A stretch of 64,000 bases of DNA from Methylococcaceae bacterium TMED69 (GTDB taxonomy: Bacteria; Pseudomonadota; Gammaproteobacteria; Ga0077536), in the NCBI GenBank assembly GCA_002170535.1, contig NHDW01000001.1:59899-123898 (forward strand). The letters run 5' to 3'. Positions 37,530 to 57,960 of this stretch are shown here, in pieces. The translations under genes were made by a program, and so were the position numbers. Positions within the stretch are counted from its first letter, which is position 1; every line of letters starts with the position of its first letter. The notes below the pieces were generated by a model. It had not been told where the DNA came from, did no database searches, and saw only the letters and a list, made by a program, of their open reading frames with translations.

Positions 37530-37581
37530 TAATGTTATTAAGATAATATCTTCCATATCAATTAACTGAGGAGATGTAGTT

Positions 37582-38655: not shown

Positions 38656-38707
38656 GTTTGCTGTTACAGTTTATCAAAAACTTAGCAAAACTTGTTTTGG
38701 ACAATAT

Positions 38708-39946
38708 ATGAAAAAAAAAGAAGAAGAAATTTTAATAATTGGTGGTTCGATGGCTGGCTTATTAGCTGGGATGAGTCTGAAAAATAGAGGTTATGAGGTA
38801 AAAATTTTTGAGCGTAGCACATCTTCACTGGAAAATAGAGGCGCAGGAATAGCCACACATGACGAGCTTTACGAAGCTTTAGAGTTCGCAGGCTTGTCTT
38901 CAAAAGCGAGTATGGGAGTGGTTTCAGACGAAAGGTTGTTTTTCTCGAAGAATGGAGATGTGACCCACAGAGTGGCAATGCCTCAGACGATGACGTCGTG
39001 GGGTCTAATCTATCGGTTTTTAAAGTTAAAATTAAGTCCCGGAGAATATTATCCAGATCACTGTCTTAACAATATTTTATATTCTCCTGACGGTAAAATT
39101 ATTGCAAAATTTACCAATGGTAAAACTGTCCAAGGTGACTTCTTGGTAGGAGCTGATGGTAGTTTATCTAGGGTCAGGCAAATCCTGCTTCCACATATTA
39201 AACCAGAGCATTCAGGTTATATAGCATGGCGAGGTTTGGTAAACGAATCAGATATTCCGTCCTCTGCGCTTCATAAGTTGGCTAATAAGTTTAGTTTTGC
39301 TTTGACTGAGGGCGGGCATTGGCTGGGATATTTGGTTGCGGGTCCGAACGATGATTTAGCGGAAGGAAAAAGATGGTATAACTGGGTTTGGTACCAATGG
39401 GAGGACACTCATTCGTTAGAAAAGATTCTCACCGATAAATCAGGTAAATATTATCCTTCTGGAATACCTCCAAATTTAATAACCGAGAAAAGTAAAAATT
39501 ATATGCGAAAGAAAGCTGCTCAATTACCAAGTATTATTCGAGAGCTTGTTACAAAGACAAAAGTTCCTTTTTTACAGGGTATTCAAGACTTATGCGTGAA
39601 TAGATTGTCCTTTGACAAGGTCGTTTTGATAGGGGATGCCGCTTGTACTGCGAGGCCTCATGTTGGTCTAGGAGTCTCGAAGGCTGCTTCGGACGCCATG
39701 ACATTGACAAAAGCGTTGTTATCCCCTGACCGAGAAGAGGCTTTGGAGCGTTGGCAGCAATCTAGGTTGGAGTTCGCAAAAGCTGTATTTCAGTGGTCGC
39801 GAGATTTGGGAAGTTACATAGGAAGTCAGAAAAAAGATAAACCCACCGGTTTTAAAGCTGATTATTACGATGATCCGAATACACTCATAATTCAAAATGC
39901 CTCAAACCAGCCCAGTCATTATATTAAATACTATCTGGCACGATAA
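38708..39946 (+). CDS. FAD-dependent aromatic-ring-type monooxygenase (PHBH-fold flavoprotein hydroxylase)
   Basis: ILIIGGSMAGLLAG...EVKIFER dinucleotide motif, DFLVGADGSLSRVR (the GADG motif), and a C-terminal GDAA-like motif (IGDAACTARPHVG). Confidence 0.7.
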   Translation: MKKKEEEILIIGGSMAGLLAGMSLKNRGYEVKIFERSTSSLENRGAGIATHDELYEALEFAGLSSKASMGVVSDERLFFSKNGDVTHRVAMPQTMTSWGLIYRFLKLKLSPGEYYPDHCLNNILYSPDGKIIAKFTNGKTVQGDFLVGADGSLSRVRQILLPHIKPEHSGYIAWRGLVNESDIPSSALHKLANKFSFALTEGGHWLGYLVAGPNDDLAEGKRWYNWVWYQWEDTHSLEKILTDKSGKYYPSGIPPNLITEKSKNYMRKKAAQLPSIIRELVTKTKVPFLQGIQDLCVNRLSFDKVVLIGDAACTARPHVGLGVSKAASDAMTLTKALLSPDREEALERWQQSRLEFAKAVFQWSRDLGSYIGSQKKDKPTGFKADYYDDPNTLIIQNASNQPSHYIKYYLAR

Positions 39947-40020
39947 GGGGTTGGCTGAAGGGCAGCTTTGATTTAAGCTTAATGAAAATTAAAAAAATTA
40001 GGAATTAGGAAGGGAAAAAT

Positions 40021-41631
40021 ATGAAGGAAGAAGAATTGAAATTAGACGCTTTAGTTATTGGGGCTGGAGTAGCAGGTTTGTATCAATTATATCTATTAAG
40101 AAAACAAGGCTTGAACGTCAAAGTCATTGATGCGGGCTCAGGGGTAGGCGGCACTTGGTATTGGAATCGTTATCCTGGAGCAAGATTCGATTCTGCCTGT
40201 TACATTTATCAATATTTATTTGACGAAGAGTTGTATAAAGGTTGGAGTTGGTCTGAAAAATTTCCTGGACAACCAGAAATTGAGAGATGGATGAACTATG
40301 TTGCTGATAAATTAGAATTAAAAAAGGATATTCAATTTAGTACCGTTGTGAAATCAGCTACATGGGATCAACAGCGTTCGTCTTGGCAGGTATCAACGGA
40401 TTCTGGTCAAAAAATAGAATGTCAGTATCTCATTTCTTGCACTGGAATGTTATCGGCTCCGTTAGAGAATGTATTCCCCGGCCAGGATAAATTCGACGGA
40501 GATATTTTTCATACCGCACGTTGGCCAAAAGAATCAATTGATTTTTCTAATCGTAGGGTTGGTATAGTAGGGAATGGAGCTACGGGAATTCAGGTTATTC
40601 AAACAATTGCTCCTGACTGTAAAGAGTTGAAAGTTTTCGTTCGCACACCGCAGTACGTCAATGCAATGAATAATCCTAAATATTCAGACAAAGACGTTGA
40701 AGAATACAAAGATAAATTTCATTGGTTTCAAGAGAACTTACCAAAAACTTTTTCGGGATTCGAATTTGAATGGCAAGATGGCTCTTGGGCTGATAGCACA
40801 CCTGAAAAAAGAAGAGAGGTACTCGAAAGAATTTGGGAAAATGGTTCATTAGAACTATGGCTTTCCTCTTATAAAGAGATGTTTTTCGAGCAGGAAGTGA
40901 ATGATGAAATATCAAATTTCGTGCGAGAAAAGATGGAACAAAGACTCAAAGATCCACAACTATGTGAAATCCTTATTCCGAAAGATTACGGTTTCGGTAC
41001 CCATAGGGTTCCACTCGAGAATGGTTATCTGGAGAAGTTTCATCTCCCTCACGTAAACCTAATTAGTGTTAAAGATAATCCAATCGCAGAGATAACATCG
41101 AGCGGAATTCGCCTAAGTAATGGGCAATCTTTTGAACTCGACACAATTATACTAGCTACTGGTTTTGATGCTGGTTCTGGAGCGCTGACAAGGATTGATA
41201 TAAAAGGCAAGAGCGATCAGTTGCTTAAAGACGAGTGGAATCGGGAAATTAAAACAATGATGGGTCTTCAAATAAGCGGTTATCCAAACTTGTTCACAAC
41301 TGGTGCTCCGCTCGCGCCCTCGGCAGCGCTCTGTAATATGACGACTTGTTTACAACAACAAGCAGAATGGATAAGCGATTGCATAAGCTACGTTAATGGG
41401 CAGGGGAAAAAAGTTATTGAAGCCAGCGAGTCAGCTCAAGAGGCTTGGGTGTCCCATCATGACGAAGTCGCTGAACAGACACTGGTAACGAAAACAAGCT
41501 CTTGGTATATGGGTTCTAATGTAGACGGAAAACCGAGAAGGTTACTATCTTATATTGGCGGGGTGGGCAATTATCGAGAGAAATGTCTTGACGTTGCGAA
41601 AGCCGAATATACAGGTTTTAATATTACCTAA
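40021..41631 (+). CDS. type I Baeyer-Villiger monooxygenase (FAD/NADPH-dependent)
   Basis: Two Rossmann motifs (GAGVAGL and GNGATGIQ) plus the BVMO fingerprint F-x-G-x3-H-x3-W-P, here FDGDIFHTARWP. 536 aa. Confidence 0.85.
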   Translation: MKEEELKLDALVIGAGVAGLYQLYLLRKQGLNVKVIDAGSGVGGTWYWNRYPGARFDSACYIYQYLFDEELYKGWSWSEKFPGQPEIERWMNYVADKLELKKDIQFSTVVKSATWDQQRSSWQVSTDSGQKIECQYLISCTGMLSAPLENVFPGQDKFDGDIFHTARWPKESIDFSNRRVGIVGNGATGIQVIQTIAPDCKELKVFVRTPQYVNAMNNPKYSDKDVEEYKDKFHWFQENLPKTFSGFEFEWQDGSWADSTPEKRREVLERIWENGSLELWLSSYKEMFFEQEVNDEISNFVREKMEQRLKDPQLCEILIPKDYGFGTHRVPLENGYLEKFHLPHVNLISVKDNPIAEITSSGIRLSNGQSFELDTIILATGFDAGSGALTRIDIKGKSDQLLKDEWNREIKTMMGLQISGYPNLFTTGAPLAPSAALCNMTTCLQQQAEWISDCISYVNGQGKKVIEASESAQEAWVSHHDEVAEQTLVTKTSSWYMGSNVDGKPRRLLSYIGGVGNYREKCLDVAKAEYTGFNIT

Positions 41632-41688
41632 TCTGATTTAGTTGCGGTTTGATAGGATGTTAAACTTCATTGTTTTGGGGAGAATATA

Positions 41689-43737
41689 ATGACATGCATA
41701 TTAGGGATAGACGTTGGAGGTACATTTACCGACTTCGTCTATCATGATCCCTCTGAAGACAAGTTGATAGTTTGGAAAACCCTTTCAACACCATCAGATC
41801 CGGGAAAAGGAATTCTGGACGGCCTACAAAATCAACAGGTTGGCGGAGTAGATTACCTTCGTTTTGGAACAACTATTGCCACAAACGCGATACTTGAACG
41901 AAACGGTGCTACTGTGGCTTTTGTAACGACTTTGGGCTTTAAGGACGTTCCATTTATTCAAAGGGGAAAACGACAGAGTCATTACGATATAAATTGGATT
42001 AAGTCCAAGCCCTTAGTAAAAAGAAGACATTGTTTTGAAATCGACGAACGTATTACGCCTCGTGAAGGGGTCTACAAAGCGCTTGATGAAAATCAAGTCA
42101 GAAAAGTTGCTAGAGCGATAGGTAATGATCAAGAAATAGAAGCAATAGCAATTTGTTTACTTTGTTCTTATGTCATACCTGATCATGAGATTCGGGTAAA
42201 AGAAATTTTTAGAGAAGAAATTCCTGATAAGCCCATTTCTATATCTTATGACTTACTTCCGAAGTGGAAAGAACATGAACGATCTTCAACAACAATAGCT
42301 GATGCTTATTTGAAACCTCTGGTTTCAGAAAATTTGAAGAGGCTTGGTCACAAATTGTCCGAAGCAAAAGATATAAAAAGAGTGTCTGTAATTAAGTCAA
42401 ATGGAGGAGAGGTATCTCTAGAAGCAGCTAAAAATTGTCCAATTCATCTAAGTTTGTCTGGCCCTACCGGGGGAGTCATTGGTGCTCGACAACTTTCAAA
42501 CCTCATTAACATTGATCATATGGTTACGCTTGATATGGGCGGAACATCAACAGATGTTTCGACTGTAGTAGGCAGGACAGAAAGTTTTACAACGAGTTAT
42601 GAAATAGAGTTTGGCATACCAATTCAAATCCCAATGATTGATATAAGAACTATGGGTGCAGGTGGAGGCTCAATAGCGTGGATAGATAAGGGTGGAATGT
42701 TGCAAGTCGGTCCACAAAGTGCCGGCGCGGCTCCCGGCCCAGCCTGTTACGATAGAGGAGGAGAGTTGCCCACAGTGACAGATGCAAATGTGGTTTTAGG
42801 TAGAATTAACCCTCAATTCTTTTTGGGTGGAAATATGAAGTTAAGCGTGGAGAAAGCAAAGCAAGCAGTAAAATCAATAGCTGAACAGTTGGGAGAAACT
42901 TTAGAAAATACTGCGAATGGTATCGTGAAGATAGCTAATAATAATATGGTTGGTGCAACTCGGTTGGTATTGACTGAAAAAGGACTAGACCCAAGAGATT
43001 TTACTATGCTTGCATTTGGTGGAGCCGGCCCCGTGCATATTTCTGACTTGATGCAACTTGCAGGGACACCGAGTGGTATTGTGCCTAATCATCCCGGTCA
43101 ATTCTCCGCTTTTGGATTCACGATGACAGATGCAAGAGTTGATTTAGAACGGACTGCGCCAATGACGTCCAGGTTTTTTAATTTTGACTATGCTAATAGA
43201 GTCTTAAGTGATTTGGTCGCAGAATGCAGCGAGGCATTGGTAGAGCAGGGATACACAGAGAAGATAGAAGTATTGAAAACCCTAGAAATGCGTTATTTTG
43301 GTCAAAATCACGAATTAGAGATTTCATTCTACGATAATGAATTCTCAGAAAATGCAATATCTTCTGTTTGGGATTCTTTTCATGAAGCGCATAAGAAGCG
43401 TTATAATTTCGACATCCCTAACGAGACGATAGAACTAATAAGTATAAAAGTTACCGCTTTAGCTCTCACTCCAAAGCCCCAAATACCAATCATAGCGTAC
43501 TCTGATAAACTTCCATCTCCTTACGAAAAACGTCAAGTTTTTTTCGATAGTGGGATAGCAAGTGCCTCGGTTTACAGAAGAGAAGAGCTTCCAGTCGGTA
43601 AAATTTTTACAGGACCAGCGCTTATAGAAGAAGATGCATCTGTTACAGTTGTTAGTCCTGACATGCCAGTCCTTATTGACAAATACGGAAATATTGTCTT
43701 AGGTAAGTTAGCCGCGGAGTATAAAAACAAATTATGA
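41689..43737 (+). CDS. hyuA: hydantoinase/oxoprolinase family protein, A-type subunit (HyuA-like, ATP-binding)
   Basis: N-terminal GIDVGGTFTDFV, a central DMGGTSTD motif, and the family's ASKHA-fold pattern. 682 aa. Confidence 0.85.
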   Translation: MTCILGIDVGGTFTDFVYHDPSEDKLIVWKTLSTPSDPGKGILDGLQNQQVGGVDYLRFGTTIATNAILERNGATVAFVTTLGFKDVPFIQRGKRQSHYDINWIKSKPLVKRRHCFEIDERITPREGVYKALDENQVRKVARAIGNDQEIEAIAICLLCSYVIPDHEIRVKEIFREEIPDKPISISYDLLPKWKEHERSSTTIADAYLKPLVSENLKRLGHKLSEAKDIKRVSVIKSNGGEVSLEAAKNCPIHLSLSGPTGGVIGARQLSNLINIDHMVTLDMGGTSTDVSTVVGRTESFTTSYEIEFGIPIQIPMIDIRTMGAGGGSIAWIDKGGMLQVGPQSAGAAPGPACYDRGGELPTVTDANVVLGRINPQFFLGGNMKLSVEKAKQAVKSIAEQLGETLENTANGIVKIANNNMVGATRLVLTEKGLDPRDFTMLAFGGAGPVHISDLMQLAGTPSGIVPNHPGQFSAFGFTMTDARVDLERTAPMTSRFFNFDYANRVLSDLVAECSEALVEQGYTEKIEVLKTLEMRYFGQNHELEISFYDNEFSENAISSVWDSFHEAHKKRYNFDIPNETIELISIKVTALALTPKPQIPIIAYSDKLPSPYEKRQVFFDSGIASASVYRREELPVGKIFTGPALIEEDASVTVVSPDMPVLIDKYGNIVLGKLAAEYKNKL

Positions 43738-43946
43738 GATTTTCAGAAAACAAATATTACATAGAGAAATATATAAAATGCGATAACTGTGGAATGCTTA
43801 TCTATGGCGATGGTCTGAAATCTAAAGAATTTTCTAAATTGTTGTTTTGTAGCGATTGGTGTATAGATTGGTATAAATCTAAGTCAAAAGGTAATGAAGA
43901 TCCGCGTATACCGTTGCCTAAAAGTGGAATTCACGAAATCAACTAG
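43734..43946 (+). CDS. 70-aa zinc-ribbon protein, translationally coupled between hyuA and hyuB. Possible small third subunit.
   Basis: Its start ATG overlaps the hyuA stop (ATGA). It has C-x2-C ... C-x3-C (CDNCG ... CSDWC). The hyuB ribosome-binding site AGGAGG follows 8 nt after its stop. Confidence 0.5.
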   Translation: MRFSENKYYIEKYIKCDNCGMLIYGDGLKSKEFSKLLFCSDWCIDWYKSKSKGNEDPRIPLPKSGIHEIN

Positions 43947-43957
43947 GAGGCTAGCAA

Positions 43958-45655
43958 ATGGACATGATAAATATGAATATTATCGAGTCAGCTATGATAG
44001 CGATCGCTAAAGAAATGGGAATTAATGTACAAAAAACAGCGTACTCCACAATCTTTAGTGAAGCTGAAGATTTCACATGCGCATTGGCAAATCGTGCGGG
44101 TGAATTAATTGCCGTGGCCGACTTTTGTCCCTCTCAAATTGGAGGCGTTCCGCTGTTGGTTCGATCCATGTTGAAGGAAATTCCCCTCTCAGAAATTGAT
44201 GAAGGCGATGTGATTGTGCACAATGATCCATACAGAGGTGGGTTGCACACACCAGAACATACAGTATTCAAACCGATCTTTATCGACGGTGAAATCGCGG
44301 CATTTTCTGTATGTGTTGGTCACTTTGTAGAGGTTGGGGGGATGGCTCCAGGGGGGTTTCCGGGTGAAGCCACTGAAATTTTTCATGAAGGTTTGAGGGT
44401 CCCACCTGTGAAAATTATAAAAAAAGGAGTAGATGTTCCAGAGGTCTGGAAAATGATGTTGGCTAATGTTAGAACCCCTAGAGGAAACTATGGTGATATG
44501 AGGGCTCTGATTAGCGGAGTGGATCTAGGGGAAAAAAGACTTCAAGAATTAGTTAAAAAATACGGTAAAGATAAATTTAATACAATAGTTAAAGATCTTC
44601 TAGATTATTCTGAAAGGCGGATGAGAGCGGAAATCTCAGAATTTCCCGACGGTGTTTATCGATTTATTGATAGAGTCGAAGACGACGGTATAGAAGACAA
44701 AGAATATGAAGTGCACGTTGCCGTGCATGTCCAAGGAGATGAGGTGGTTATCGATTACACTGGCTCGTCAAGACAGGCAAAGGGTCCAATTAATGCCACT
44801 TTAGGAGTTGCTTGGTCAGCTGCGTTTAATGCCATGTTACATTTAACAGATCAAAGCATCCCAAAAAATTCTGGTTGTTTCAGACCAATTAGAGTGATCG
44901 CACCAGCTGGAACCGTAATGAATGTTAATTATCCGGGTTCTGAGGTTGGAGGAAACACAGAAACTCATCCTTTGATAGTAGCGGCTATATTTGGCGCGAT
45001 GGTGGAGTGCGTGCCCGATAGGGTTATGGCTTCTGAAGGAACCACTCATGGATGTTTTGTTTTCGGTGGTCATGATGACTACACTGATGAGCCTTTTGGG
45101 GGATTTGATTTCAGCTATGTAGGTTATGGAGGCCGTGCATTTGCTGACGGCAATGATGCAACAGATTCGATTAATGGAAACTGCGCAAACACTCCAATGG
45201 AAGTATTTGAAACAAGGTTTCCTTGGATAGTCGAGGAATATGCGCTAAGGCCAAACTCAGGAGGGGCTGGAAAATTTAGAGGTGGTTTAAGCAATGTGAA
45301 ACAAATGTTATGTACAGGAGGGATGTTAGTCAGCCAGATGACCAATAAGCATAAATTAGGCGCATGGGGCCTAGTTGGCGGAGAGGAAGGTAAAACCGGC
45401 GCAACGTTATTTAAAAAATCAGGTAGCGATAGCTGGGAGACGGCGGTAGAGGCTTATGGTAAAGTCAGCCCAAGTAAGTATTCGAATATTCCAATGCAAC
45501 CAGGAGACCGAGTTCGAGTTTCAGCACCTGGTGGAGGCGGATACGGTCAAGCGTCTGAAAGAGAAAAAAGTGATGTTCTTATGGACGTAAAGGAAGGTTA
45601 TATAAGTAAAGCTGATGCAATAAAATCATACCCAGTCAACGGCAGTGATTTGTAG
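43958..45655 (+). CDS. hyuB: hydantoinase B/oxoprolinase family protein (HyuB-like catalytic subunit)
   Basis: 565 aa with the characteristic HyuB N-terminal region (IAKEMGINVQKTAYSTIFSEAEDF). AGGAGG ribosome-binding site. Confidence 0.85.
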   Translation: MDMINMNIIESAMIAIAKEMGINVQKTAYSTIFSEAEDFTCALANRAGELIAVADFCPSQIGGVPLLVRSMLKEIPLSEIDEGDVIVHNDPYRGGLHTPEHTVFKPIFIDGEIAAFSVCVGHFVEVGGMAPGGFPGEATEIFHEGLRVPPVKIIKKGVDVPEVWKMMLANVRTPRGNYGDMRALISGVDLGEKRLQELVKKYGKDKFNTIVKDLLDYSERRMRAEISEFPDGVYRFIDRVEDDGIEDKEYEVHVAVHVQGDEVVIDYTGSSRQAKGPINATLGVAWSAAFNAMLHLTDQSIPKNSGCFRPIRVIAPAGTVMNVNYPGSEVGGNTETHPLIVAAIFGAMVECVPDRVMASEGTTHGCFVFGGHDDYTDEPFGGFDFSYVGYGGRAFADGNDATDSINGNCANTPMEVFETRFPWIVEEYALRPNSGGAGKFRGGLSNVKQMLCTGGMLVSQMTNKHKLGAWGLVGGEEGKTGATLFKKSGSDSWETAVEAYGKVSPSKYSNIPMQPGDRVRVSAPGGGGYGQASEREKSDVLMDVKEGYISKADAIKSYPVNGSDL

Positions 45656-45664
45656 GTAAAACTT

Positions 45665-46078
45665 ATGAGCAAGCTAACGAAAAGTCTTCATTGGTCAACT
45701 GTGATAGGTGAGAAAATATTGCTCGCTATTATAGGTTTCTTAACTATAGTTGCAGCTGGTCTTGATATTCTCGAAATGTACGACGCTAGAAAAATAGAAC
45801 TGGCCGACCTATTTTTATTATTCATTTATGCCGAAATAATAGGGATGGTTGGTGCATTCTATGCCAGTAGTCGTATTCCAGTTACATTACCAATAATAAT
45901 TGCCATGACCGCGTTATGTAGATTAATTGTGCTCCATAGTAAAGAAATGGACCCGATGATGTTGTTTGCTGAAGCAGGTGCAATTGCTATACTGGCCGCC
46001 GCCGCTTATGTGATGAGCCTTAAAGATAAAATTAGTTTAGAGAAAAGTGAACTAAGAGAACGGGTTTCGAAACAATAA
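45665..46078 (+). CDS. PsiE-like small inner-membrane protein (phosphate-starvation-inducible protein E family)
   Basis: 137 aa with 4 TM helices. Its spacing and residues resemble E. coli PsiE (YAEIIGMV compared with YFEFIALIV, and TALCRLIVLHSK compared with TAIVRLIIVDHK). Confidence 0.5.
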   Translation: MSKLTKSLHWSTVIGEKILLAIIGFLTIVAAGLDILEMYDARKIELADLFLLFIYAEIIGMVGAFYASSRIPVTLPIIIAMTALCRLIVLHSKEMDPMMLFAEAGAIAILAAAAYVMSLKDKISLEKSELRERVSKQ

Positions 46079-46159
46079 GACCGTTAAAATTTTGCCACGA
46101 TTCTGGAAAAGTTTCGCCGAGGAAGACCAGAAAATGTTGAGGAAATAATAGAACCTGCC

Positions 46160-49100
46160 GTGATTACTAAAAAATCCTCAAATAATAAATGGCAATTTTG
46201 GATTGATAGGGGAGGTACATTCACAGACGTTATAGGCGTTTCCCCCGATGACGTTATCCACGTAAAAAAAATCCTCACTGCTCATAAAAATGAATCCTTC
46301 AAGATAATCCTTGAGCATATTTATTCAATTATCCGGTCGACTGATGCTGATGGGCATGTTGATGAAAGTATAGGTGAGATTAAACTTGGTACAACCCTGG
46401 GAACTAATGCTTTATTAGAAAAAAAAGGCGCTAAAACTGTTTTGGTGGTCACAAAAGGTTATAAAGATCTGCTGTCGATAGGACATCAGAACAGAGAATT
46501 GCTGTTCTCATTTAACATAAGGAAAGAAAGTACGTTTTGGGAAAGTGCCGTAGAGGTTGGAGGTAGGATAAGTGCTAGTGGCAAAATTCTTGATAGACTA
46601 GATGAAAATGATGTAGTAAACGTGCTTAAGACCCGCAAAATAAATTCTTTCGACGCTGTCGCGGTCGCTTTGATTAATAGCCATATAAATCCAGCGCATG
46701 AAAATCTTGTTGCTAAGAAATTACAAGATTTGGGTATAGATAATCTCGCTATCTCACATCAAAGCAGCTCAATGTTAGGGTATGTTGATCGTGCAAACAC
46801 CGCTGTCGTTGACGCTTATTTAAAACCACTACTAGAAAAATATGTAGCGGGCATAAAAAAAGAGATAGGTAAAGTAAATTTTCTAATCATGCAATCTCAT
46901 GGTGGACTGGCCGAAGCGGAGAATTTTCAGGGCAGGAATTCCATTTTATCAGGACCTGCCGGCGGAGTGATAGGAGCAGTTAAAACCGCAAGAAATAGAG
47001 GTTTTGATAAAATTATCTGTTTTGATATGGGGGGCACCTCGACCGATGTGGCTCATTATCATGATAACTACGAGTACAGAAGTCAAAGTAAAATTGAAAG
47101 CATCACAATTAACAGTAATTCAATGGACATCCATACGGTGGCCGCAGGAGGAGGTTCTATCGTTGATTTTGACGGCATTAGGTACAAAGTGGGCCCGGAA
47201 TCAGGGGGCTCATATCCTGGTCCTGCCTGTTACGGGAATGGCGGCCCGGTTACAGTCACAGACTGTAACGTTCTGATTGGTATAATCAGACCAGAATATT
47301 TTCCAACTCTGTTCGGTAAAAATAAAAATTCGCCCATAGACAGAGATTTAGTTGTTTCAATATTTGAAAAAATAAAGGATGATTCAAAAAATAAGCTAAA
47401 GGAAGATATGACTATTTACCAAATCGCAGAGGGTTTTTTAGAATTAGCTGTAAAAAAAATGGCCAATGCAATAAAAAAAATATCAATTGATAAAGGTCAT
47501 GATATAAAAAACTATGTTTTAAATTGCTATGGAGGTGCAGCTGCGCAACACTGCTGTGCAGTTGCAGATTCTCTAAGCATTAAAGAAATTTTCATTTCAA
47601 ATAATGCCAGCGTCTTATCTGCTCTTGGGATCGGTCTCTCAGATAGACAAATAATTATTGAAAAATCAATAAACAAAATTCTTTGCGACTCAATTGTTAA
47701 AGAATTGCCAATTTTTGCTGAACGAATAATTAAAGATTCGAAATTAAATTTTAAAAGACAAGAATTAGTAACAAGTGAAATTTTTCTTAAATTAAAGTTT
47801 GAGGACACCTCGGATACTTTTTTAATTCCTTTGAGCGATAGTAACAGTATGAGAGATCAATTTATGCAGTCTTTTAAAAAAAGCTATGGTTTTCTAGAGC
47901 AAAATAAAAACCTTTTTGTTGAGTCAATTTTGGTTAAGACAATAGAAGCATCAAAAATTAATCTTAATGCCTTAAGTTCCAATTCTTCAGAACATGTAAA
48001 TACAAATAAAACTGCACTAGAAAAAAAGGTTTTTGAGGATGGTCAATGGAAAGATATACCTTTCTATCAGCTCGAGGAGCTCTCAAGCCAAAAATCAATA
48101 ATTGGTCCCGCAGTCATAATATCACCAAACAATACGGTATTAATAAAGACAGGTTGGACGTGTGATTGCTACGATAATCATGATTTATTATTGAGAAAAT
48201 TAAATCCTTCAGAGAAAAACAATCTTTTAATTAAATCACAGAATACAAAAATTGCCATGGAGGTAGCAATCTTTGGAAATCAAATAGTCTCTGTTGCGGA
48301 ACAGATGGGAAGTGCTCTTAAAAAGACTGCTACTTCTATCAACATAAAAGAGCGTTTGGACTATTCTTGTGCGATCTTCGATAGTGAAGGGTCATTATTG
48401 GCAAGTGCGCCACATATTCCTGTACATCTGGGCTCTATGAGCGATTGCGTAAAAACGTTAATTGAGAAGATGTCGGGCTCTTTAAAATCAGGTCAAACAT
48501 ATGTTACAAATGATCCGTTTAGAGGGGGAACACACTTACCAGATATTACATGTATTAGTCCAGTTTTTGCTTCTGAAAACCATAGAGCCCCCGTTTTTTT
48601 TGTGGCTTCTCGTGGTCATCACGCTGATATTGGAGGGATAACTCCAGGCTCTATGCCAGCTGAAAGCTTAAATATTCAACAAGAGGGAATACTCTTTAAG
48701 CTGATGATGGCAGTAAAAGATAATGTTTTTAGAGAAAAAGAAATTACCCGTATTCTTTTAGATAGTAATTATCCGGCTAGGAATATTGCCCATAATATTG
48801 CTGACCTAAAGGCGCAAATTGCGGCAAACCAGACAGGGATAAATGAGCTTCAAACTAAATTAATCGAGTTTGGTGAGGCTTCAGTTACTGACCTGTCGAA
48901 ACGTCTTTTAAATCAAGGCGAGCAGTTTGTGAGAAAGATTATACCTGACTTAAATTCAGGTACCTTTGAAGCTTGCCTTGATGAGGGGCAGAAGATTTCT
49001 GTCGATGTGCGCGTGAATAAAAATCAAAAAGAAATAACATTTGATTTCGAAAATACAAATGGGCAGCTTAAAACTAATTTTAACGCGCCTAAATCGATTA

Positions 49101-49792
49101 CTAAGGCGTGTATTATTTACGTTTTACGTTCGCTTATTTGTGATAAAGAAATACCATTAAATGATGGGTGTTTGATTCCAGTCAAATTAAAGATACCTAA
49201 AAAAAGTCTATTAGATCCAAGCTATCCCGCTGCAGTTGTCGCTGGTAATGTTGAAATTAGCCAAAAAATTGTCGATGTTATTTTAGCCGCTCTTGGAATC
49301 CAAGCATTTTCCCAGGGAACGATGAATAATTTATCTTTTGGAAACTCCCGTTTTCAATATTACGAAACAATTTCCGGCGGTTCGGGAGCGGGAAAAAATT
49401 ACGATGGCTCTAGCGCAAGACAAACACATATGACTAATTCACGAATTACAGATCCTGAGGTGATGGAACATCATTTCCCCGTTTTACTGGAGGAATTTTC
49501 AATAAGACAAAATAGCGGAGGAAAAGGTCAATATAATGGAGGAGACGGGGTGTGTAGAAAAATTAAATTTTTTGAGTCAGTTTCTTTATCGATATTATCG
49601 AGTAGTAGGGTATTTCGACCTACCGGATTAGATGGCGGATTGCAAGGATTAGCGGGTAGGAACTTTCATATTGATGAGGCTGGGTGTCATCATGAGTTGC
49701 CAGGATGTGCTCAAATAGAAATTAAGCCCGGTGAATCTATTTTAATTCACACGCCAGGTGGTGGAGGTTTTGGTGAGCCGTCTTTTGATTGA
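46160..49792 (+). CDS. fused hydantoinase/oxoprolinase A+B protein (5-oxoprolinase (ATP-hydrolysing)-like, eukaryote-type single-chain architecture)
   Basis: 1210 aa. The N-terminus (WQFWIDRGGTFTDV) parallels animal OPLAH (FHFAIDRGGTFTDV). It has the DMGGTSTDV motif, and its C-terminal half is HyuB-like. GTG start. Confidence 0.8.
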   Translation: MITKKSSNNKWQFWIDRGGTFTDVIGVSPDDVIHVKKILTAHKNESFKIILEHIYSIIRSTDADGHVDESIGEIKLGTTLGTNALLEKKGAKTVLVVTKGYKDLLSIGHQNRELLFSFNIRKESTFWESAVEVGGRISASGKILDRLDENDVVNVLKTRKINSFDAVAVALINSHINPAHENLVAKKLQDLGIDNLAISHQSSSMLGYVDRANTAVVDAYLKPLLEKYVAGIKKEIGKVNFLIMQSHGGLAEAENFQGRNSILSGPAGGVIGAVKTARNRGFDKIICFDMGGTSTDVAHYHDNYEYRSQSKIESITINSNSMDIHTVAAGGGSIVDFDGIRYKVGPESGGSYPGPACYGNGGPVTVTDCNVLIGIIRPEYFPTLFGKNKNSPIDRDLVVSIFEKIKDDSKNKLKEDMTIYQIAEGFLELAVKKMANAIKKISIDKGHDIKNYVLNCYGGAAAQHCCAVADSLSIKEIFISNNASVLSALGIGLSDRQIIIEKSINKILCDSIVKELPIFAERIIKDSKLNFKRQELVTSEIFLKLKFEDTSDTFLIPLSDSNSMRDQFMQSFKKSYGFLEQNKNLFVESILVKTIEASKINLNALSSNSSEHVNTNKTALEKKVFEDGQWKDIPFYQLEELSSQKSIIGPAVIISPNNTVLIKTGWTCDCYDNHDLLLRKLNPSEKNNLLIKSQNTKIAMEVAIFGNQIVSVAEQMGSALKKTATSINIKERLDYSCAIFDSEGSLLASAPHIPVHLGSMSDCVKTLIEKMSGSLKSGQTYVTNDPFRGGTHLPDITCISPVFASENHRAPVFFVASRGHHADIGGITPGSMPAESLNIQQEGILFKLMMAVKDNVFREKEITRILLDSNYPARNIAHNIADLKAQIAANQTGINELQTKLIEFGEASVTDLSKRLLNQGEQFVRKIIPDLNSGTFEACLDEGQKISVDVRVNKNQKEITFDFENTNGQLKTNFNAPKSITKACIIYVLRSLICDKEIPLNDGCLIPVKLKIPKKSLLDPSYPAAVVAGNVEISQKIVDVILAALGIQAFSQGTMNNLSFGNSRFQYYETISGGSGAGKNYDGSSARQTHMTNSRITDPEVMEHHFPVLLEEFSIRQNSGGKGQYNGGDGVCRKIKFFESVSLSILSSSRVFRPTGLDGGLQGLAGRNFHIDEAGCHHELPGCAQIEIKPGESILIHTPGGGGFGEPSFD

Positions 49793-50220
49793 GCTAATAT
49801 CATCTCCTCGAAATGTTGCATAGTTAAAGTATCAAGCACATTAGAGTGCTCATCAAGAAATTCAACAAACCGATCATTTTTAGACTTATAGTTTACGTAA
49901 ATCAAACTATTTTTTGTGAACTCTTCGTCGTGAGTATCATTGCTAGCTTGAAAGCAATAATCTCCTTGTTCAAAAGTCTCTTTTATGCTGTGGTTGATTA
50001 TTTTTCCTGAGATAACATAAATTCTTGTCTCACAAGTGTGACGATGGGGGCCTGATCTATAACCTGCTTTTATTTTAAAAAGTAATTCCACAGTTTTGTC
50101 GGACCGGTTCAGTGATAAGACTTTTGCCTTGATTTTTTCTTCGCTGTCTATAGCTAACCAGGGAATCTGGCTCGTTTTCCTGTTATTAAATTGTGTATTC
50201 ATATAGCGTTTAACTAACAA
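49747..50220 (-). CDS. cupin-domain protein
   Basis: G-x5-H-x-H cupin motif 1 (GPHRHTCETRIYVISG). 157 aa. Its 3' end overlaps the convergent oxoprolinase gene by 45 nt. Confidence 0.5.
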   Translation of the reverse strand: MLVKRYMNTQFNNRKTSQIPWLAIDSEEKIKAKVLSLNRSDKTVELLFKIKAGYRSGPHRHTCETRIYVISGKIINHSIKETFEQGDYCFQASNDTHDEEFTKNSLIYVNYKSKNDRFVEFLDEHSNVLDTLTMQHFEEMILAQSKDGSPKPPPPGV

Positions 50221-50463
50221 TTAAGTTTATTTATCGTATCATACTCTGGATAATAACTAATTTGATTTTTAAAAAAGGAAGGTTTTTTGGTTTCTCTTTG
50301 GCGAATGTGTTTGAAAACGCGACGTCTTTAGGGTGGTTGATTACAACCTATAGATAAAAATTTTAAAAATATTTGGCATTTTCGTGCTCTCTCGGTGAAA
50401 ATAAAGAATCGTGTAGGGATATTTGCGTGGATTTAATTACAGATCAACAGAATGGAGTGAAAA

Positions 50464-51897
50464 ATGGGAGATTTGAGACACAATAGTTTTAAAACTATGA
50501 TGAATGATGTTGTCGATTTTGGTAGCTGCTGTGAATGTGGCAGTTGTGTGGCAGCTTGTCCTCATAACGTAATAGAAATGGTCGAGGGAAAGCCAAAACA
50601 AACAGCAAAAGCATCGGCTCCATCTGACTTTTGTGGCGTAAGTGAGGGTGCAGGTTGCGATGTTTGCGCGACAGTGTGCCCGAGACTATGGCCTAGGGAG
50701 ACCCATTTGAGACAAGCAGTTTTTTCAAATGACAGGAAGGAATCATGGGAAGGCGTCTTTGGGGTTTTTCGTAATATCTTTGTAGCTAAATCGAAAGACC
50801 CTATAATATCAGAAAATGGACAGGATGGAGGCGTTGTCACAGCGCTGTTGGATTGGGCATATGAGACCGGTAACATAGATGGCGCGATAGTATCGGCGGT
50901 TGGTGAAGACGATCAACCATGCTTTCCTACGCCTAAGGTCGCGAAGGATAAAGAGTCAATTCGAAATAGCTCAGGTAGCTGGTATACCTATTGCCCGAAT
51001 AATCTAGCGTTAGAGCAAGCCGCTGAAGAGGATCTCAAATCGTTGGGGTTCGTGGGAGTACCGTGTCAAATCACTCCTTTAAGGAAAATGGAAAAAATGG
51101 ACCCTAGTTTTCTCGTCTCTGAAAAAAAGAAACCAAAAATTGTTGGAAGACAACGTGAATTCTTGAGAGGAATGAGTGATAGGGTAAATTTTAGTATAGG
51201 ACTGTTTTGCACTGAAGTATTCCGGCCCGAACTCATGACGGAAAAAATTGAAAAAGAAATGGGAATCCCCCTTTCCGATGTTAAGCAATTCAACGTAAAA
51301 GGTGAGGTTCTCATTTATAAAAAAAACGGAGACGTTGCTACCATACCGCTTGCGGAGGCCATGGAACAATACCAAAGACCTGAATGTGCTCATTGTGGCG
51401 ACTTTTCCGCAGAACTGGCTGATATAGCATGCGGTGGTGTTGGTACTGAGCGCGCAACGATTGTTGTCATTAGGACCGAAAAAGGCGAGAAGATTTGGAA
51501 ACAGTTCGAAGCCTCGGGTCGAGTATCCGTTGAACCGATTGAAGAAAATAAAAGAGCTTGGAATATTCTCTACAGGTTGTCGAAACGTCAGAGAGCTAGG
51601 GTGCCCGAAGGTCCAGAGAGAGGTGGCGTCCAAAGCCATGAGGAATATGATCCATGGGGTGATAACGATTTGATTGAAAAAAAGCTTGCTGCCGGAAAGA
51701 AATCTGATGAGGAAAAAATGGCATGTTTAGATACCGCTTTTGCGGGAGAGCCTCGTCCGAGTCAATCAATTGAATTTATAGCTGGAAGCCCAATTCCAAA
51801 TGACCAACCCCTTAGCGAAGACGGCAAGAAAAAAAGACCTTTGCCTTTACCAAAAGAATTAGGCGGTCATTCTCCATTATTTGATCAAGGTAAATGA
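50464..51897 (+). CDS. coenzyme F420 hydrogenase/dehydrogenase beta-subunit-family flavoprotein (FrhB/FdhB-like) with an N-terminal 2x[4Fe-4S] ferredoxin domain and a roughly 100-aa low-complexity C-terminal tail
   Basis: Two C-x2-C-x2-C-x3-CP motifs (CECGSCVAACP, CDVCATVCP). The FrhB-like core includes ISENGQDGGVVTALLDWAYETGNIDGAIV. The tail is rich in K, E, D and P. Confidence 0.7.
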   Translation: MGDLRHNSFKTMMNDVVDFGSCCECGSCVAACPHNVIEMVEGKPKQTAKASAPSDFCGVSEGAGCDVCATVCPRLWPRETHLRQAVFSNDRKESWEGVFGVFRNIFVAKSKDPIISENGQDGGVVTALLDWAYETGNIDGAIVSAVGEDDQPCFPTPKVAKDKESIRNSSGSWYTYCPNNLALEQAAEEDLKSLGFVGVPCQITPLRKMEKMDPSFLVSEKKKPKIVGRQREFLRGMSDRVNFSIGLFCTEVFRPELMTEKIEKEMGIPLSDVKQFNVKGEVLIYKKNGDVATIPLAEAMEQYQRPECAHCGDFSAELADIACGGVGTERATIVVIRTEKGEKIWKQFEASGRVSVEPIEENKRAWNILYRLSKRQRARVPEGPERGGVQSHEEYDPWGDNDLIEKKLAAGKKSDEEKMACLDTAFAGEPRPSQSIEFIAGSPIPNDQPLSEDGKKKRPLPLPKELGGHSPLFDQGK

Positions 51898-52010
51898 ATG
51901 AGTTGACACAATTTGACGAAAAACTGATAATTAACTGTTTATAATACTTTAATTAATTTCACTCGTATTACATGTAAATTAATTTAATCATATACATCAG
52001 GAGCAAAAAG

Positions 52011-52427
52011 ATGTCATTAAAAGGGAGCAAAACAGAGGAAAACCTCAAAGCCGCATTTGCGGGTGAGTCGCAAGCAAATAGACGTTATCTCTACTTCGCA
52101 CAAAAGGCAGATGTAGAGGGATACAATGATGTTTCGACTGTATTTAGGTCAACAGCGGAAGGCGAGACCGGTCATGCCCACGGCCACCTAGAATATTTAG
52201 AAGCAGTTGGAGATCCTGCTACAGGAGAACCAATAGGTACTACGGAGCAGAACTTAAAAGCTGCAATAGCCGGTGAAACCCACGAATATACCGATATGTA
52301 TCCTGGTATGGCGAAGGCTGCTAAAGAAGAAGGTTTTGACGAAATCGCTGATTGGTTCGAGACTCTCGCAAAAGCTGAGCGTTCTCACGCCAACAGATTC
52401 CAAAAAGCCTTAGATTCTATATCTTAA
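52011..52427 (+). CDS. rubrerythrin-family diiron protein without a rubredoxin domain (erythrin-like)
   Basis: Two E-x2-H diiron motifs ([10 protein letters not shown] and ERSHANRF) plus conserved Glu residues ([11 protein letters not shown] and ETHEYTDMY). 138 aa. Confidence 0.8.
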
Positions 52428-52486
52428 AATAATCGAGCTTAGGGTAGGTTTTCTTTTAGAAGCCTACCCTTCTCTTCGCTTGTCTT

Positions 52487-53830
52487 ATGTCATACAAATC
52501 TTTAAAAGAGGGTAGCCTAGATGCGCCCACAAGACACGCCATCGATTGGAAATCAGATGATTTTTATGATGAGGACAGGATCAATTCTGAGTTAGAGAGA
52601 GTATTCGATATTTGCCATACTTGCCGTCGATGTGTGAGTCTCTGTAATTCCTTTCCCTCGCTATTTGACTTAATAGACGAAAGCGAGACCATGGAAGTTG
52701 ATGGTGTTTCAAAAGCAGACTACAAAAAAGTAGTTGATGAATGTTATCTTTGTGATATTTGTTATTTAACCAAATGCCCTTATGTCCCTCCGCACGAATG
52801 GAACGTAGACTTCCCTCATCTTATGTTAAGAGCGAAAGCAGCTAGTTTTAGAAAAGGTGAGACAAGCTTGCGAGACAAGATAATTACGTCTACTAAAGTA
52901 GTGGGAAACTTAGCAGGACTGCCGGTAGTCGCGCCAATCGTTAATGTTTTAAATAAAAATTCCGTAACAAGAAACGTTTTGGAGAAAACTTTAGGTATTC
53001 ATAAAGAAGCTCCACTACCCAAATATCATTCAAATAAATTTTTAAAACAAAAAGGTTTAACGAAAAACCCAAATCTCGATAGAACTTCTCAAGATGAAAA
53101 AATAGCAGTTTTTGTAACGTGTTATGGGAACGTAAATTCTCCGCGTTTAGTTGAGGATATGGTGTCAGTTTTTGAACTCAGTGGCCTTAGCGTTTCAATA
53201 ATTAATAGTAATGAATGTTGTGGAATGCCGAAATATGAGTTGGGGGATTTACCTTCGGTAGCAGAATTTGCCGAACGCAACCTAAAGAAAATGAAACCTT
53301 TCATTGAAGCCGATTATAAGATAACCGCGCCAATACCCAGTTGTGTATTGATGTACAGGAAAGAATTGCCCTTAATGTTCCCCGACGACGAGAATATTAA
53401 AAACCTATCAGAAGCAATGGTTGATCCTTTTGAGTTGCTAATGAACCTACATAAACAAGGAAAATTTAATACAAACTTTATTAACCAATTGGGAAACGTC
53501 GCTTACCATGCGCCTTGCCATCAGAGGGTGCAGAATATTGGCCCAAAAACCAAAGAAGTTTTGGAGTTGATCCCTGGTACGAAAGTTTCACTTATCGAAC
53601 GATGTTCAGGGCATGATGGCACTTACGCTGTGAAAAAGGAAAGCTATCCTAGCGCTAAAAAAATATGTCGGCCAGTGGTTTCCGCAATCGATAAAAGTGA
53701 AACCGACCATTTTGTAAGTGATTGTCCTATGGCCTTTGATCTAATAGAACAAGGAACTCGTAAAAAGTCTGAATTCTCGTCAGCATTTGGCGTTTTAAGA
53801 TATGCTTATGGAGTGCAAAATGAAAAATAA
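52487..53830 (+). CDS. (Fe-S)-binding oxidoreductase with two ferredoxin-type clusters and two CCG domains (HdrD/GlpC/GlcF-like)
   Basis: CHTCRRCVSLC and CYLCDICYLTKCPY (4Fe-4S motifs). Cys-rich CCG motifs CCGMP and CHQRV...C. Confidence 0.75.
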   Translation: MSYKSLKEGSLDAPTRHAIDWKSDDFYDEDRINSELERVFDICHTCRRCVSLCNSFPSLFDLIDESETMEVDGVSKADYKKVVDECYLCDICYLTKCPYVPPHEWNVDFPHLMLRAKAASFRKGETSLRDKIITSTKVVGNLAGLPVVAPIVNVLNKNSVTRNVLEKTLGIHKEAPLPKYHSNKFLKQKGLTKNPNLDRTSQDEKIAVFVTCYGNVNSPRLVEDMVSVFELSGLSVSIINSNECCGMPKYELGDLPSVAEFAERNLKKMKPFIEADYKITAPIPSCVLMYRKELPLMFPDDENIKNLSEAMVDPFELLMNLHKQGKFNTNFINQLGNVAYHAPCHQRVQNIGPKTKEVLELIPGTKVSLIERCSGHDGTYAVKKESYPSAKKICRPVVSAIDKSETDHFVSDCPMAFDLIEQGTRKKSEFSSAFGVLRYAYGVQNEK

Positions 53831-54410
53831 TAAACTTGAAATTCAGGACCTGCAAAGTTTAGAAGATTATGCGAGTTGCCGGACTGAGTTTCGTAAAAAC
53901 GTACTAGAACACAAAAAAGCAAGGCGGGTCGATCTAGGGGATCATATCTCATTGTATTTTGAAAGTGCTCTTACTATTCAATACCAAATACAGGAGATGT
54001 TGAGGATAGAAAAAATTTTTGAAAAAGATGCTATTCGAGAAGAATTCGATGCTTACATTCCGTTGATCCCTGATCAGTTTAATCTGAAAGCCACGATGAT
54101 GATTGAGTATGTCGATGAAGAAATCCGGAAAACAGAGCTTGTAAAATTAAATGGGATCGAGTCAAGGATTTGGATGCAGTGCGGTCCTAACCACCCTATT
54201 TATGCTATCGCAGATGAGGATTTGGAACGTAGTGATGGTACAAAAACGTCAGCTGTTCACTTTCTAAGATTTAATGTTTCTAAAGAAGCTAGACGATCTA
54301 TATTAGGGAGGGAACAAGTTTTGTTTGGTATTGACCATCCAAATTATCAAGTGCAACAAGTCACCGTGTCTAGTAGTACTATTACTTCACTTGGGGACGA
54401 TCTCAGATAG
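53820..54410 (+). CDS. DUF3501-family protein
   Basis: About 196 aa. The ATG at 53820 has a GGAG ribosome-binding site 7 nt upstream and overlaps the previous stop by 11 nt (the track ORF starts at 53802). The family call is from memory of DUF3501 being a conserved neighbour of rubrerythrin and CCG-protein genes. Confidence 0.45.
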   Translation: MKNNKLEIQDLQSLEDYASCRTEFRKNVLEHKKARRVDLGDHISLYFESALTIQYQIQEMLRIEKIFEKDAIREEFDAYIPLIPDQFNLKATMMIEYVDEEIRKTELVKLNGIESRIWMQCGPNHPIYAIADEDLERSDGTKTSAVHFLRFNVSKEARRSILGREQVLFGIDHPNYQVQQVTVSSSTITSLGDDLR

Positions 54411-57447: not shown

Positions 57448-57960
57448 TTAAGAATGGCGGTATCTTCGATGCCATTCAAAACCTTGCCAAGTTGTAAGCT
57501 CTCGGGGCTTTATTTTGAACGTAGTACATGGCTCGGAATTAACGGATTTTCTATATTCATTGGCTTTTTCGCCAAGATAACGTGGTCCTGTATGATTTTC
57601 ACCTATTTGATTCCACACTGATTTCTGCCCATTTTCTAGAAAAGGTCCAACCCCTTTTTCGATGATTTCAGCTTCACCGTCGCAAATTACTTTTCTGATT
57701 GGCGGTACCGGCTCGTCAATCACTAAAGACACTCTTGGATCATCTTCTAGGAATTCAGCCCATCGAGATTTTTTCCTTCCGACTATCCAAAAATCAGAAC
57801 CATCCCAGTGGTACCAAACTGGAACAACAAAAGGCGAACCATCGGACTTTATACAGGCTAGTCTAGCGATCCAAGGTTCTGATAAAAATTCATCTATCTC
57901 TTGTTTAGACATTCTTCCAATTTTATCGCCTCGCCAGGAAGTGTTATTATTTTTTGTCAT
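57448..57960 (-). CDS. pyridoxamine 5'-phosphate oxidase-like FMN-binding split-barrel protein
   Basis: Motif ARLACIKSDGSPFVVPVWYHWDG, typical of the PNPOx-like family. 170 aa. Confidence 0.6.
   Translation of the reverse strand: MTKNNNTSWRGDKIGRMSKQEIDEFLSEPWIARLACIKSDGSPFVVPVWYHWDGSDFWIVGRKKSRWAEFLEDDPRVSLVIDEPVPPIRKVICDGEAEIIEKGVGPFLENGQKSVWNQIGENHTGPRYLGEKANEYRKSVNSEPCTTFKIKPRELTTWQGFEWHRRYRHS

Follow-up and report, generated by a model that had tools for sequence, protein, structure and literature searches.

In Methylococcaceae bacterium TMED69, a single long open reading frame (ORF) that joins the two halves of a hydantoinase/oxoprolinase-type enzyme lies downstream of a split pair, hyuA and hyuB, from which it is separated by psiE, the gene of a small membrane protein. 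This arrangement raises the question of what the fused enzyme does, and whether it acts together with its neighbours. The analysis covered a stretch of 64,000 nucleotides (positions 59,899 to 123,898 of the forward strand of contig NHDW01000001.1, NCBI GenBank assembly GCA_002170535.1), hereafter the window, in whose numbering coordinates are given. An earlier note, made from the sequence alone, had described this gene order, which was confirmed by the ORFs, all on the forward strand, and had read the tandem as two sequential ring-opening steps or as paralogues with different substrate ranges. According to our analysis, the fused ORF probably encodes a complete and selectively maintained ATP-dependent lactam hydrolase of the type of 5-oxoprolinase OPLAH, most likely a 5-oxoprolinase. 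Its genomic setting is best read as two evolutionarily independent modules brought together in one lineage of marine gammaproteobacterial metagenome-assembled genomes (MAGs).

As had been proposed, the HyuA-like and HyuB-like halves are carried by one polypeptide of 1210 residues, which is supported by the ORF and by four Pfam domains (Table 1). The reading frame is unbroken over 1210 codons and is also open in relatives. The eukaryote-type oxoprolinase call was borne out as well. Indeed, the protein aligns with human OPLAH (NP_060040.1 / OPLA_HUMAN, 1288 aa, sequence confirmed by exact look-up) from residues 6-1207 to residues 3-1256, at 36.2% identity over 1270 columns and with 769 bits, a global alignment giving 38.8% identity. 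This compares with 374 bits against the fused N-methylhydantoinase 7hk5, 170 and 100 bits against the caprolactamase subunits CapA and CapB (6yra), and 213 and 192 bits against the HyuA and HyuB of the window, which are 29% and 27% identical to the N-half and the C-half, respectively. Since the score against OPLAH exceeds those against the other characterised members, the fused protein, judged by its sequence, belongs to the OPLAH (eukaryote-type) branch. The N-terminal pattern aromatic-x-F-x-IDRGGTFTDV, already pointed out in the earlier note as W/F-x-F-x-IDRGGTFTDV, occurs in both proteins (NNKWQFWIDRGGTFTDV in the window aligned with EGRFHFAIDRGGTFTDV in human OPLAH), and so do the active-site-proximal stretches NIKERLD[FY]SCA, APHIPVHLG and ASRGHHADIGGITPG. 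Like OPLAH/OXP1 (EC 3.5.2.9), the window protein is one polypeptide with a HyuA-like N-half followed by a HyuB-like C-half, but it is 78 residues shorter (1210 vs 1288) and lies in a window with no visible gamma-glutamyl-cycle context. It remained below the NCBIfam equivalogs of caprolactamase (288 and 139 bits vs the 1000-bit cut-offs of CapA and CapB) and of acetone/acetophenone carboxylase (56-175 bits vs cut-offs of 1250-1500). The N-methylhydantoinase (7hk5/9h03, 1288 aa) shares the fused architecture and the fold but represents a different subfamily: the window protein is not close to 9h03 (about 25% identity in the structural alignment), and the score is half of that obtained with OPLAH.

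The catalytic residues of this family are retained. ATP is bound in the family through the motifs DxGGTxTD (phosphate 1), DxGGT (phosphate 2) and GxxPGP (adenosine), and the metal site of the B subunit of caprolactamase consists of Asp41, His99, Asp102 and His124 (PMC8453981). All three ATP motifs are present in the HyuA-like half, where the two phosphate motifs are identical to those of OPLAH; the adenosine motif of either protein conforms to GxxPGP. In the HyuB-like half, D734, H792, D795 and H820 align with Asp41, His99, Asp102 and His124 of CapB (alignment to 6yra_B) and are invariant in an alignment of the fused protein with 33 homologues (A1, 34 sequences); the HxPD...H ligands are also visible in the OPLAH alignment. 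Caprolactamase CapAB/HyuAB (6yra) has the same ASKHA-type ATP motifs and the same Asp-His-Asp-His metal site, but it is made of split subunits whereas the window protein is a single chain with much lower scores. A check of ATP-grasp residues, as suggested in the earlier note, was misplaced, the nucleotide-binding half being of the ASKHA type and an ATP-grasp domain being absent according to Pfam and Foldseek (PMC8453981). Among 270 columns invariant in 31 distant homologues, 257 (95%) are kept, and most of the 13 changes, which include G163S, G302D and T1033I, are conservative. The ratio of non-synonymous to synonymous substitution rates (dN/dS) is 0.108 against the 87% identical relative at locus L009, with unsaturated synonymous sites (dS 0.62); the fused gene is under purifying selection. 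The earlier note had envisaged degenerate motifs as the sign of a pseudo-enzyme; because the ATP motifs and the metal ligands are intact, the fused protein does not qualify as one.

The fold is in line with this placement. An AlphaFold model covering residues 11-1210 reached a predicted local distance difference test score (pLDDT) of 77 and a predicted template modelling score (pTM) of 0.71. Its best Foldseek match was the fused N-methylhydantoinase 9h03 (template modelling score, TM, 0.71; E 2.4e-79), followed by the nucleotide-binding subunits of acetophenone carboxylase, acetone carboxylase and caprolactamase, and then by ASKHA kinases. The HyuB-like domain matched 6yra_B with a target-normalised TM of 0.78.

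Following published work on OPLAH and caprolactamase (PMC8453981), the reaction would be 5-oxo-L-proline + ATP + 2 H2O -> L-glutamate + ADP + Pi. The N-terminal ASKHA half would bind ATP with its three motifs (phosphate 1, phosphate 2 and adenosine), and the lactam carbonyl would be activated there; in the C-terminal HyuB-like half, water bound to the metal of the Asp-His-Asp-His site would then open the activated intermediate. Homology points to 5-oxoproline as the likely substrate, and so does the distribution of the gene, which stands alone without a recurrent context, as would be expected for housekeeping or metabolite repair. Its product may be a housekeeping enzyme that acts alone, in metabolite repair or in nitrogen salvage, which also seems to be the role of the homologues of other prokaryotes. 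Presumably the same reaction, the ATP-dependent opening of 5-oxoproline, is performed by PxpABC, which is unrelated in sequence and in subunit composition (PMC8453981; PMC13274462). The LamB/YcsF, PxpB and PxpC families were not found among the scanned ORFs of the window, a scan that covered part of the ORFs.

The fused form was implied in the earlier note to be remarkable in a bacterium, which does not hold. At least 8000 homologous proteins were scored at E <= 1e-20, and nearly all of the top 120 are about 1200-1250 aa long with the same domains. Of 984 prokaryotic genomes, 115 are reported to hold a homologue (PMC13274462, citing Niehaus et al., 2017). In Bordetella pertussis, a eukaryotic-type 5-oxoprolinase gene lies near the 5-oxoproline-binding tripartite ATP-independent periplasmic (TRAP) receptors DctP6/DctP7 (PMC13274462). 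A member of the bacterial fused superfamily has already been solved structurally (7hk5/9h03). Full-length matches at 44-50% identity came from cyanobacteria, methanogens, Clostridia and marine proteobacteria, and the genome scan gave full-length relatives in Pseudanabaena, Methanococcoides, Kordiimonadaceae, Thioglobus, Thalassospiraceae and Rikenellaceae, with partial matches in Nitrosomonas and others. Many of the homologues carry the JGI label "5-oxoprolinase (ATP-hydrolysing)". Prokaryotic homologues of the eukaryotic type (cyanobacteria, Methanolobus, Methanococcoides) have the same four Pfam domains and a similar length but usually stand alone, whereas the preceding psiE gene is found only in the lineage of the window, together with the split cassette in most of its members. 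Homologues at 46-50% identity stand alone, with a ferritin-like gene upstream in marine betaproteobacterial contigs. No Pfam family recurs among 66 neighbours of 16 other fused loci; at one locus (L008), the 5-oxoproline-producing ChaC lies two genes from the fused homologue. The fused protein hence looks like an ordinary, intact member of an already known prokaryotic family of the OPLAH type, and on present evidence there is neither novelty nor mechanistic meaning in its fused architecture or in the tandem.

The start of the gene is unusual in the relatives. In L002, L033 and L036, no in-frame ATG, GTG or TTG occurs between the upstream stop and the essential phosphate-1 motif WQFWIDRGGTFTD, only ATT, ATC or ATA. 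The positions concerned are 46160-46165 in the window, 9803 in L002, 6742 in L033 and 2531 in L036; an ATT is aligned with window position 46163 in all relatives except the error-prone long-read contig L001. Because no ATG/GTG/TTG start is available, gene callers have shortened the proteins in relatives (P0003, 1138 aa; P0004, 1062 aa). In some relatives, translation of the fused gene may hence begin at AUU. The spacer between psiE and the fused gene is poorly conserved among them. In its composition, the fused gene bears no clear mark of recent transfer, neither its GC content (0.372 vs a window mean of 0.379) nor its GC at third codon positions (GC3, 0.293 vs 0.31-0.36 in most neighbouring genes and 0.297 in Flavodx) being clearly anomalous.

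Several observations weigh against the assignment as a functional 5-oxoprolinase. An identity of 36-39% does not fix substrate specificity in a functionally mixed family, which also holds N-methylhydantoinases, caprolactamases and ketone carboxylases (PMC8453981), and the adjacent genes in the window include none for the gamma-glutamyl cycle or for 5-oxoproline transport. The confidence of the model is low in the nucleotide-binding core (model residues 235-375) because the alignment is shallow. The start codon is weak, being GTG in the window, and L002, L033 and L036 offer only ATT, ATC or ATA. Moreover, the gene is the fastest-evolving of the conserved block (68-70% identity vs 71-100% for its neighbours, L001 and L002), although in L033 the cupin gene is lower still (41-49%), and its dN/dS exceeds those of its neighbours 1.5-fold to about 20-fold. 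Fast evolution and a weak start together suggest low expression, modest constraint and a low-priority function. The enzyme could instead hydrolyse or carboxylate another cyclic amide or ketone (a hydantoin, a dihydropyrimidine or a longer lactam) independently of its neighbours, which we regard as unlikely. The functional diversity of the family (PMC8453981) would allow it, an N-methylhydantoinase is the one fused bacterial homologue with a solved structure, the protein sequence evolves rather fast, and the lineage of the window is 36-37% identical to OPLAH vs 42-44% for cyanobacterial, Methanolobus (archaeal) and clostridial fused proteins, which are 44-46% identical to the window protein. 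The NCBI annotations are also on this side, the near-identical OUU76240.1 being only a "hypothetical protein [Methylococcaceae bacterium TMED69]" and the 87% relative a [quoted passage not shown]. However, OPLAH scores twice as high as N-methylhydantoinase and four times as high as caprolactamase, the similarity runs end to end and includes the active-site-proximal stretches, and a catabolic gene context is absent from the 16 other fused loci. That the ORF is a decaying or catalytically dead paralogue is hardly credible: being the least conserved of the well-conserved block genes, having a weak or non-canonical start in relatives and departing from 13 of 270 otherwise invariant positions would fit decay, but the 1210-codon frame is uninterrupted here and in relatives, dN/dS is about 0.1, and the ATP motifs, the four metal ligands and 95% of the invariant columns are kept.

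The tandem was then compared with the loci of relatives. The full block is kept in L001 and L002, and in L009 as far as the contig reaches (from within hyuA); in L034 and L035, hyuB is directly upstream of psiE and the fused gene, again as far as the contigs reach. Because the block is conserved in these relatives, the tandem is not single-genome noise, a case that the earlier note had named as refuting; a functional unit is nevertheless unsupported. In L033 and L036, a Baeyer-Villiger-type flavin monooxygenase (BVMO) gene (94% identity) is followed by psiE (87%) and the fused gene (65-70%), the hyuA-cys4-hyuB cassette being cleanly absent. Conversely, the cassette occurs in L193 with genes for a short-chain dehydrogenase/reductase (SDR), an alpha/beta-hydrolase and an ABC transporter, without psiE, fused gene or BVMO. 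Synonymous divergence (pS) against L009 was 0.57 for hyuB, compared with 0.41 for psiE and 0.42 for the fused gene, and against L033 it was 0.49 for BVMO, compared with 0.76 and 0.71. No split HyuA or HyuB gene was found near 23 other fused-homologue loci. One module is therefore the psiE-fused gene pair, fixed only in this marine gammaproteobacterial MAG lineage, and the other is the hyuA-cys4-hyuB cassette, whose presence is variable. Since two independent modules abut, the tandem is not to be read as a two-step ring-opening pathway, and this part of the earlier proposal falls with the absence of the cassette from L033/L036, its solitary occurrence in L193 and the pS break between hyuB and psiE. 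The other reading, paralogues that differ in substrate range, agrees with the data simply in so far as the two enzymes are ancient paralogues.

The split cassette has features of its own. The 220 nt between hyuA and hyuB, left empty in the earlier note, hold a conserved ORF of 70 codons, here called Cys4, with four invariant cysteines (C16xxC19...C39xxxC43) and a dN/dS of 0.018 against L002. No Pfam family was matched by its product at E up to 1, including the gamma subunit of acetone carboxylase. The Cys4 family comprises 92 representative clusters among 1.84 billion proteins, and in five members the Cys4 domain is fused N-terminally to a Hydantoinase_B domain; the order hyuA-small ORF-hyuB also recurs in the distant locus L193. 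The Cys4 protein is probably a third, zinc-ribbon-like subunit of a HyuAB subfamily. The split HyuB reads H-T-P-E at residues 97-100 (44246-44257), with Glu where CapB has the metal ligand Asp102, so its metal site is an Asp-His-Glu-His variant of the tetrad. The H-x-P-E form was present in every member of the Cys4 cassette examined (L001, L002, L009, L034, L193, P0302 and P0345). The split subunits scored 502 bits (HyuA, NCBIfam CapA) and 315 bits (HyuB, CapB), both below the 1000-bit equivalog cut-offs, and 120-292 bits against the acetone/acetophenone carboxylase equivalogs (cut-offs 1250-1500). On these sequence comparisons, the split pair, which comes closest to the caprolactamase CapAB/HyuAB hydantoinases, belongs to a different, caprolactamase/hydantoinase-like branch and is an ancient paralogue of the fused enzyme, the two being only 27-29% identical.

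As for the small membrane protein, the four transmembrane segments described in the earlier note were recovered in its 137 residues (hydrophobic segments 10-39, 44-68, 70-93 and 97-119; Kyte-Doolittle windows >= 1.6). Membership of the PsiE family had been proposed from architecture only, and can now be put on the sequence, since the Pfam score (PF06146, 69.9 bits vs a cut-off of 23.9, E 2.9e-19, profile positions 3-120 of 122) is well above the cut-off. PsiE of Escherichia coli is a phosphate-starvation-inducible inner-membrane protein of unknown function. The window protein shares with it the Pfam family, the size and the four membrane segments, but it does not reach the NCBIfam equivalogs of the E. 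coli type (best NF002765, 28.5 bits vs 145; model cut-offs 138-222) and groups with proteins of IMG/VR viral contigs in a close-knit marine subfamily. The E. coli Pho-box consensus, which may not be that of the host, had no match in the whole window with up to three mismatches. The dN/dS of psiE is 0.074 against L009. In each of the eight loci of the lineage (window, L001, L002, L009 and L033-L036), psiE directly precedes the fused gene; this conserved position, which the earlier note had proposed to check, does not extend to the 23 more distant fused homologues, and no psiE gene was found near fused homologues at <= 50% identity.

PsiE has thousands of relatives. In 76 of the 80 best metagenomic relatives (63-77% identity), no hydantoinase-family gene lies within up to 7 kb, and the four loci that have one are all from the lineage of the window; this flank screen covered the 80 best metagenomic loci. 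Relatives at 58-77% identity are mainly on viral contigs, and those at 61-74% come from no fewer than 96 viral contigs of IMG/VR, which are up to 342 kb long. Contigs of 100-250 kb with PsiE at 70-78% carry genes for ClpP, ClpX, IF3, ribosomal protein S21, HSP20, ClpS, NMNAT, IMPDH, phosphoribosyl pyrophosphate (PRPP) synthase, primase and DnaB, along with many ORFs without family; on the viral-looking contigs examined, the psiE gene was among those for ClpP, ClpS, NMNAT, IMPDH, PRPP synthase and DnaB. The eight sequences of the host lineage form one clade with 84-99% mutual identity, and the host-to-viral distance (median 72% identity) is the same as the viral-to-viral distance (median 74%). 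PHROGs v4 had no family for the PsiE protein and, among its neighbours on viral-looking contigs, matched only primase, ligase and one unknown PHROG. The viral link rests on the IMG/VR classification, since GenBank phages gave only two weak matches. In our literature search, no description of PsiE as a viral auxiliary gene was found.

These data bear on readings in which the neighbours cooperate. A single pathway for the split HyuAB and the fused enzyme, with two successive ATP-dependent openings or two substrate ranges for one nutrient, and with co-transcription of the upstream CoA-transferase, alanine dehydrogenase (AlaDH), FAD-monooxygenase and BVMO genes, appears quite improbable. All genes within 35790-49792 point the same way, their gaps range from -4 to 90 nt and the junctions hold no terminator-like site, and the arrangement recurs in full in the window, L001, L002 and L009 and from hyuB onwards in L034 and L035. 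However, either module occurs without the other (L033/L036 and L193), a split HyuA or HyuB is missing from the surroundings of all 23 other fused loci, pS shifts abruptly between hyuB and psiE against L009 and between BVMO and psiE against L033, and the two enzymes are ancient paralogues at 27-29% identity. A dedicated partnership of PsiE with the fused enzyme, as membrane anchor or as substrate or product channel, is very doubtful. The constant position of psiE in the eight loci, two of which lack the split cassette, and its pS against L009, which matches that of the fused gene and not that of hyuB, would agree with it. The earlier note had likewise suggested an anchor or substrate handler, but the adjacency is confined to this lineage, being absent around fused homologues at <= 50% identity, and PsiE is well conserved in contexts without any hydantoinase, both in 76 of its 80 best relatives and beside ClpP/NMNAT/DnaB-type genes on viral-looking contigs, at least 96 IMG/VR contigs encoding relatives; such a dedicated role is therefore unlikely. 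Members of the OPLAH family, besides, are soluble and need no membrane subunit (PMC8453981). Fainter still is the chance that PsiE and the OPLAH-type enzyme form a real two-gene unit here, the same PsiE subfamily having been captured by many marine viruses as an unrecognised auxiliary gene; PsiE could then, for example, conduct a small solute such as 5-oxoproline or glutamate, or regulate the enzyme in response to stress. The preferred reading remains an OPLAH-type enzyme in a setting of two independent modules.

The features of the locus are collected in Table 1. The stop of hyuB is only 9 nt from the start of psiE, which is consequently without an upstream region of its own. A promoter/terminator scan of 39900-50600 returned fewer promoter-like matches than in shuffled sequences and neither promoters nor terminators at gene junctions, and an Rfam scan of the whole window found no element in the hydantoinase locus. 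The 3' end of the convergent cupin gene overlaps that of the fused gene by 46 nt, an arrangement also seen in L001 and L002. In its behaviour, the region resembles a recombination or variable spot, with presence/absence polymorphism of the cassette and an abrupt change of synonymous divergence at hyuB/psiE (45655/45665); the fused (68-70%) and cupin (41-73%) genes are the least conserved of the block, their neighbours being at 94-100%.

Table 1. Coordinates of the locus, of the domains and of the catalytic motifs of the fused protein (window numbering; A1, alignment of 34 sequences)
Feature	Position in window	Strand	Residues	Evidence or remark
CoA-transferase III	35790-37010	+		first gene of co-directional run
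GFA-family protein	37101-37529	+		co-directional run
AlaDH	37582-38655	+		co-directional run
FAD monooxygenase	38708-39946	+		co-directional run
BVMO	40021-41631	+		co-directional run
Split hyuA	41689-43737	+	682 aa	Pfam and NCBIfam
Cys4 ORF	43734-43946	+	70 aa	ATG overlaps hyuA stop (ATGA)
Split hyuB	43958-45655	+	565 aa	Pfam and NCBIfam
psiE	45665-46078	+	137 aa	Pfam PF06146; four hydrophobic segments
psiE-fused gene spacer	46079-46159	+		81 nt, intergenic; GAGG at 46139-46142
Fused OPLAH-type gene	46160-49792	+	1210 aa	ORF and Pfam; GTG start; last gene of run
Hydant_A_N			13-190	Pfam E 1.2e-45, above curated cut-off
Hydantoinase_A			211-495	Pfam E 1.9e-94, above curated cut-off
HyuA-like ATP-binding (ASKHA) part	46196-47644	+		Hydant_A_N and Hydantoinase_A
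Phosphate-1 motif (DxGGTxTD)	46205-46228	+	D16-R-G-G-T-F-T-D23	nearly invariant in A1; identical in human OPLAH
Phosphate-2 motif (DxGGT)	47024-47038	+	D289-M-G-G-T293	invariant in A1; identical in human OPLAH
Adenosine motif (GxxPGP)	47207-47224	+	G350-S-Y-P-G-P355	P353, G354, P355 invariant in A1
Hydant_A_C			594-677	Pfam E 3e-6, above curated cut-off
Hydantoinase_B (HyuB-like hydrolytic, metal-binding)	48260-49780	+	701-1207	Pfam E 3.9e-180, above cut-off
Metal tetrad stretch	48359-48619	+	D734, H792, D795, H820	codons 48359-48361, 48533-48535, 48542-48544, 48617-48619
ChrR-type cupin gene	49747-50220	-		convergent; closes co-directional run

Elsewhere in the window, a conserved set at 50464-54410 (+), a short way downstream of the locus, comprises an FrhB/FdhB-like Fe-S flavoprotein, a rubrerythrin, a CCG-domain HdrD/GlpC-like protein and DUF3501. 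The rubrerythrin is 98-100% identical among the relatives (dN/dS 0.005). This set appears to be a redox module of its own, with no relation to the hydantoinase genes. The sole Rfam match is a glutamine riboswitch (RF01739, 57285-57404 (-), 45.7 bits vs a gathering score of 35), which sits downstream of glutamine-synthetase-like (57961-59430) and PNPOx-like (57448-57960) genes on the minus strand and presumably controls a small downstream ORF. Another gene of the amide-hydrolase type, at 22087-24444 (-), encodes a 785-aa protein with a C-terminal domain like the beta subunit of N,N-dimethylformamidase (PF20254, E 4.9e-94) and a Laminin_G_3 domain. A 682-aa ORF at 4121-6169, considered as a third hydantoinase, was identified as a TonB-dependent receptor.

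Homologues of the OPLAH type being already known in a minority of prokaryotes (roughly a tenth of genomes), the fused gene itself matters little. The useful outcome is a negative one: the split-plus-fused tandem represents two independent modules abutting in one marine MAG lineage and not a new pathway. Three by-products are more unusual than the fused gene itself, namely the apparent AUU start of this gene in some relatives, the Cys4 mini-protein, a marker of a separate HyuAB subfamily whose metal site is Asp-His-Glu-His, and the marine PsiE subfamily common to this lineage and to about a hundred IMG/VR viral contigs. Should PsiE and the OPLAH-type enzyme prove to form a two-gene unit, this would provide the first biochemical context for the function-unknown PsiE family.

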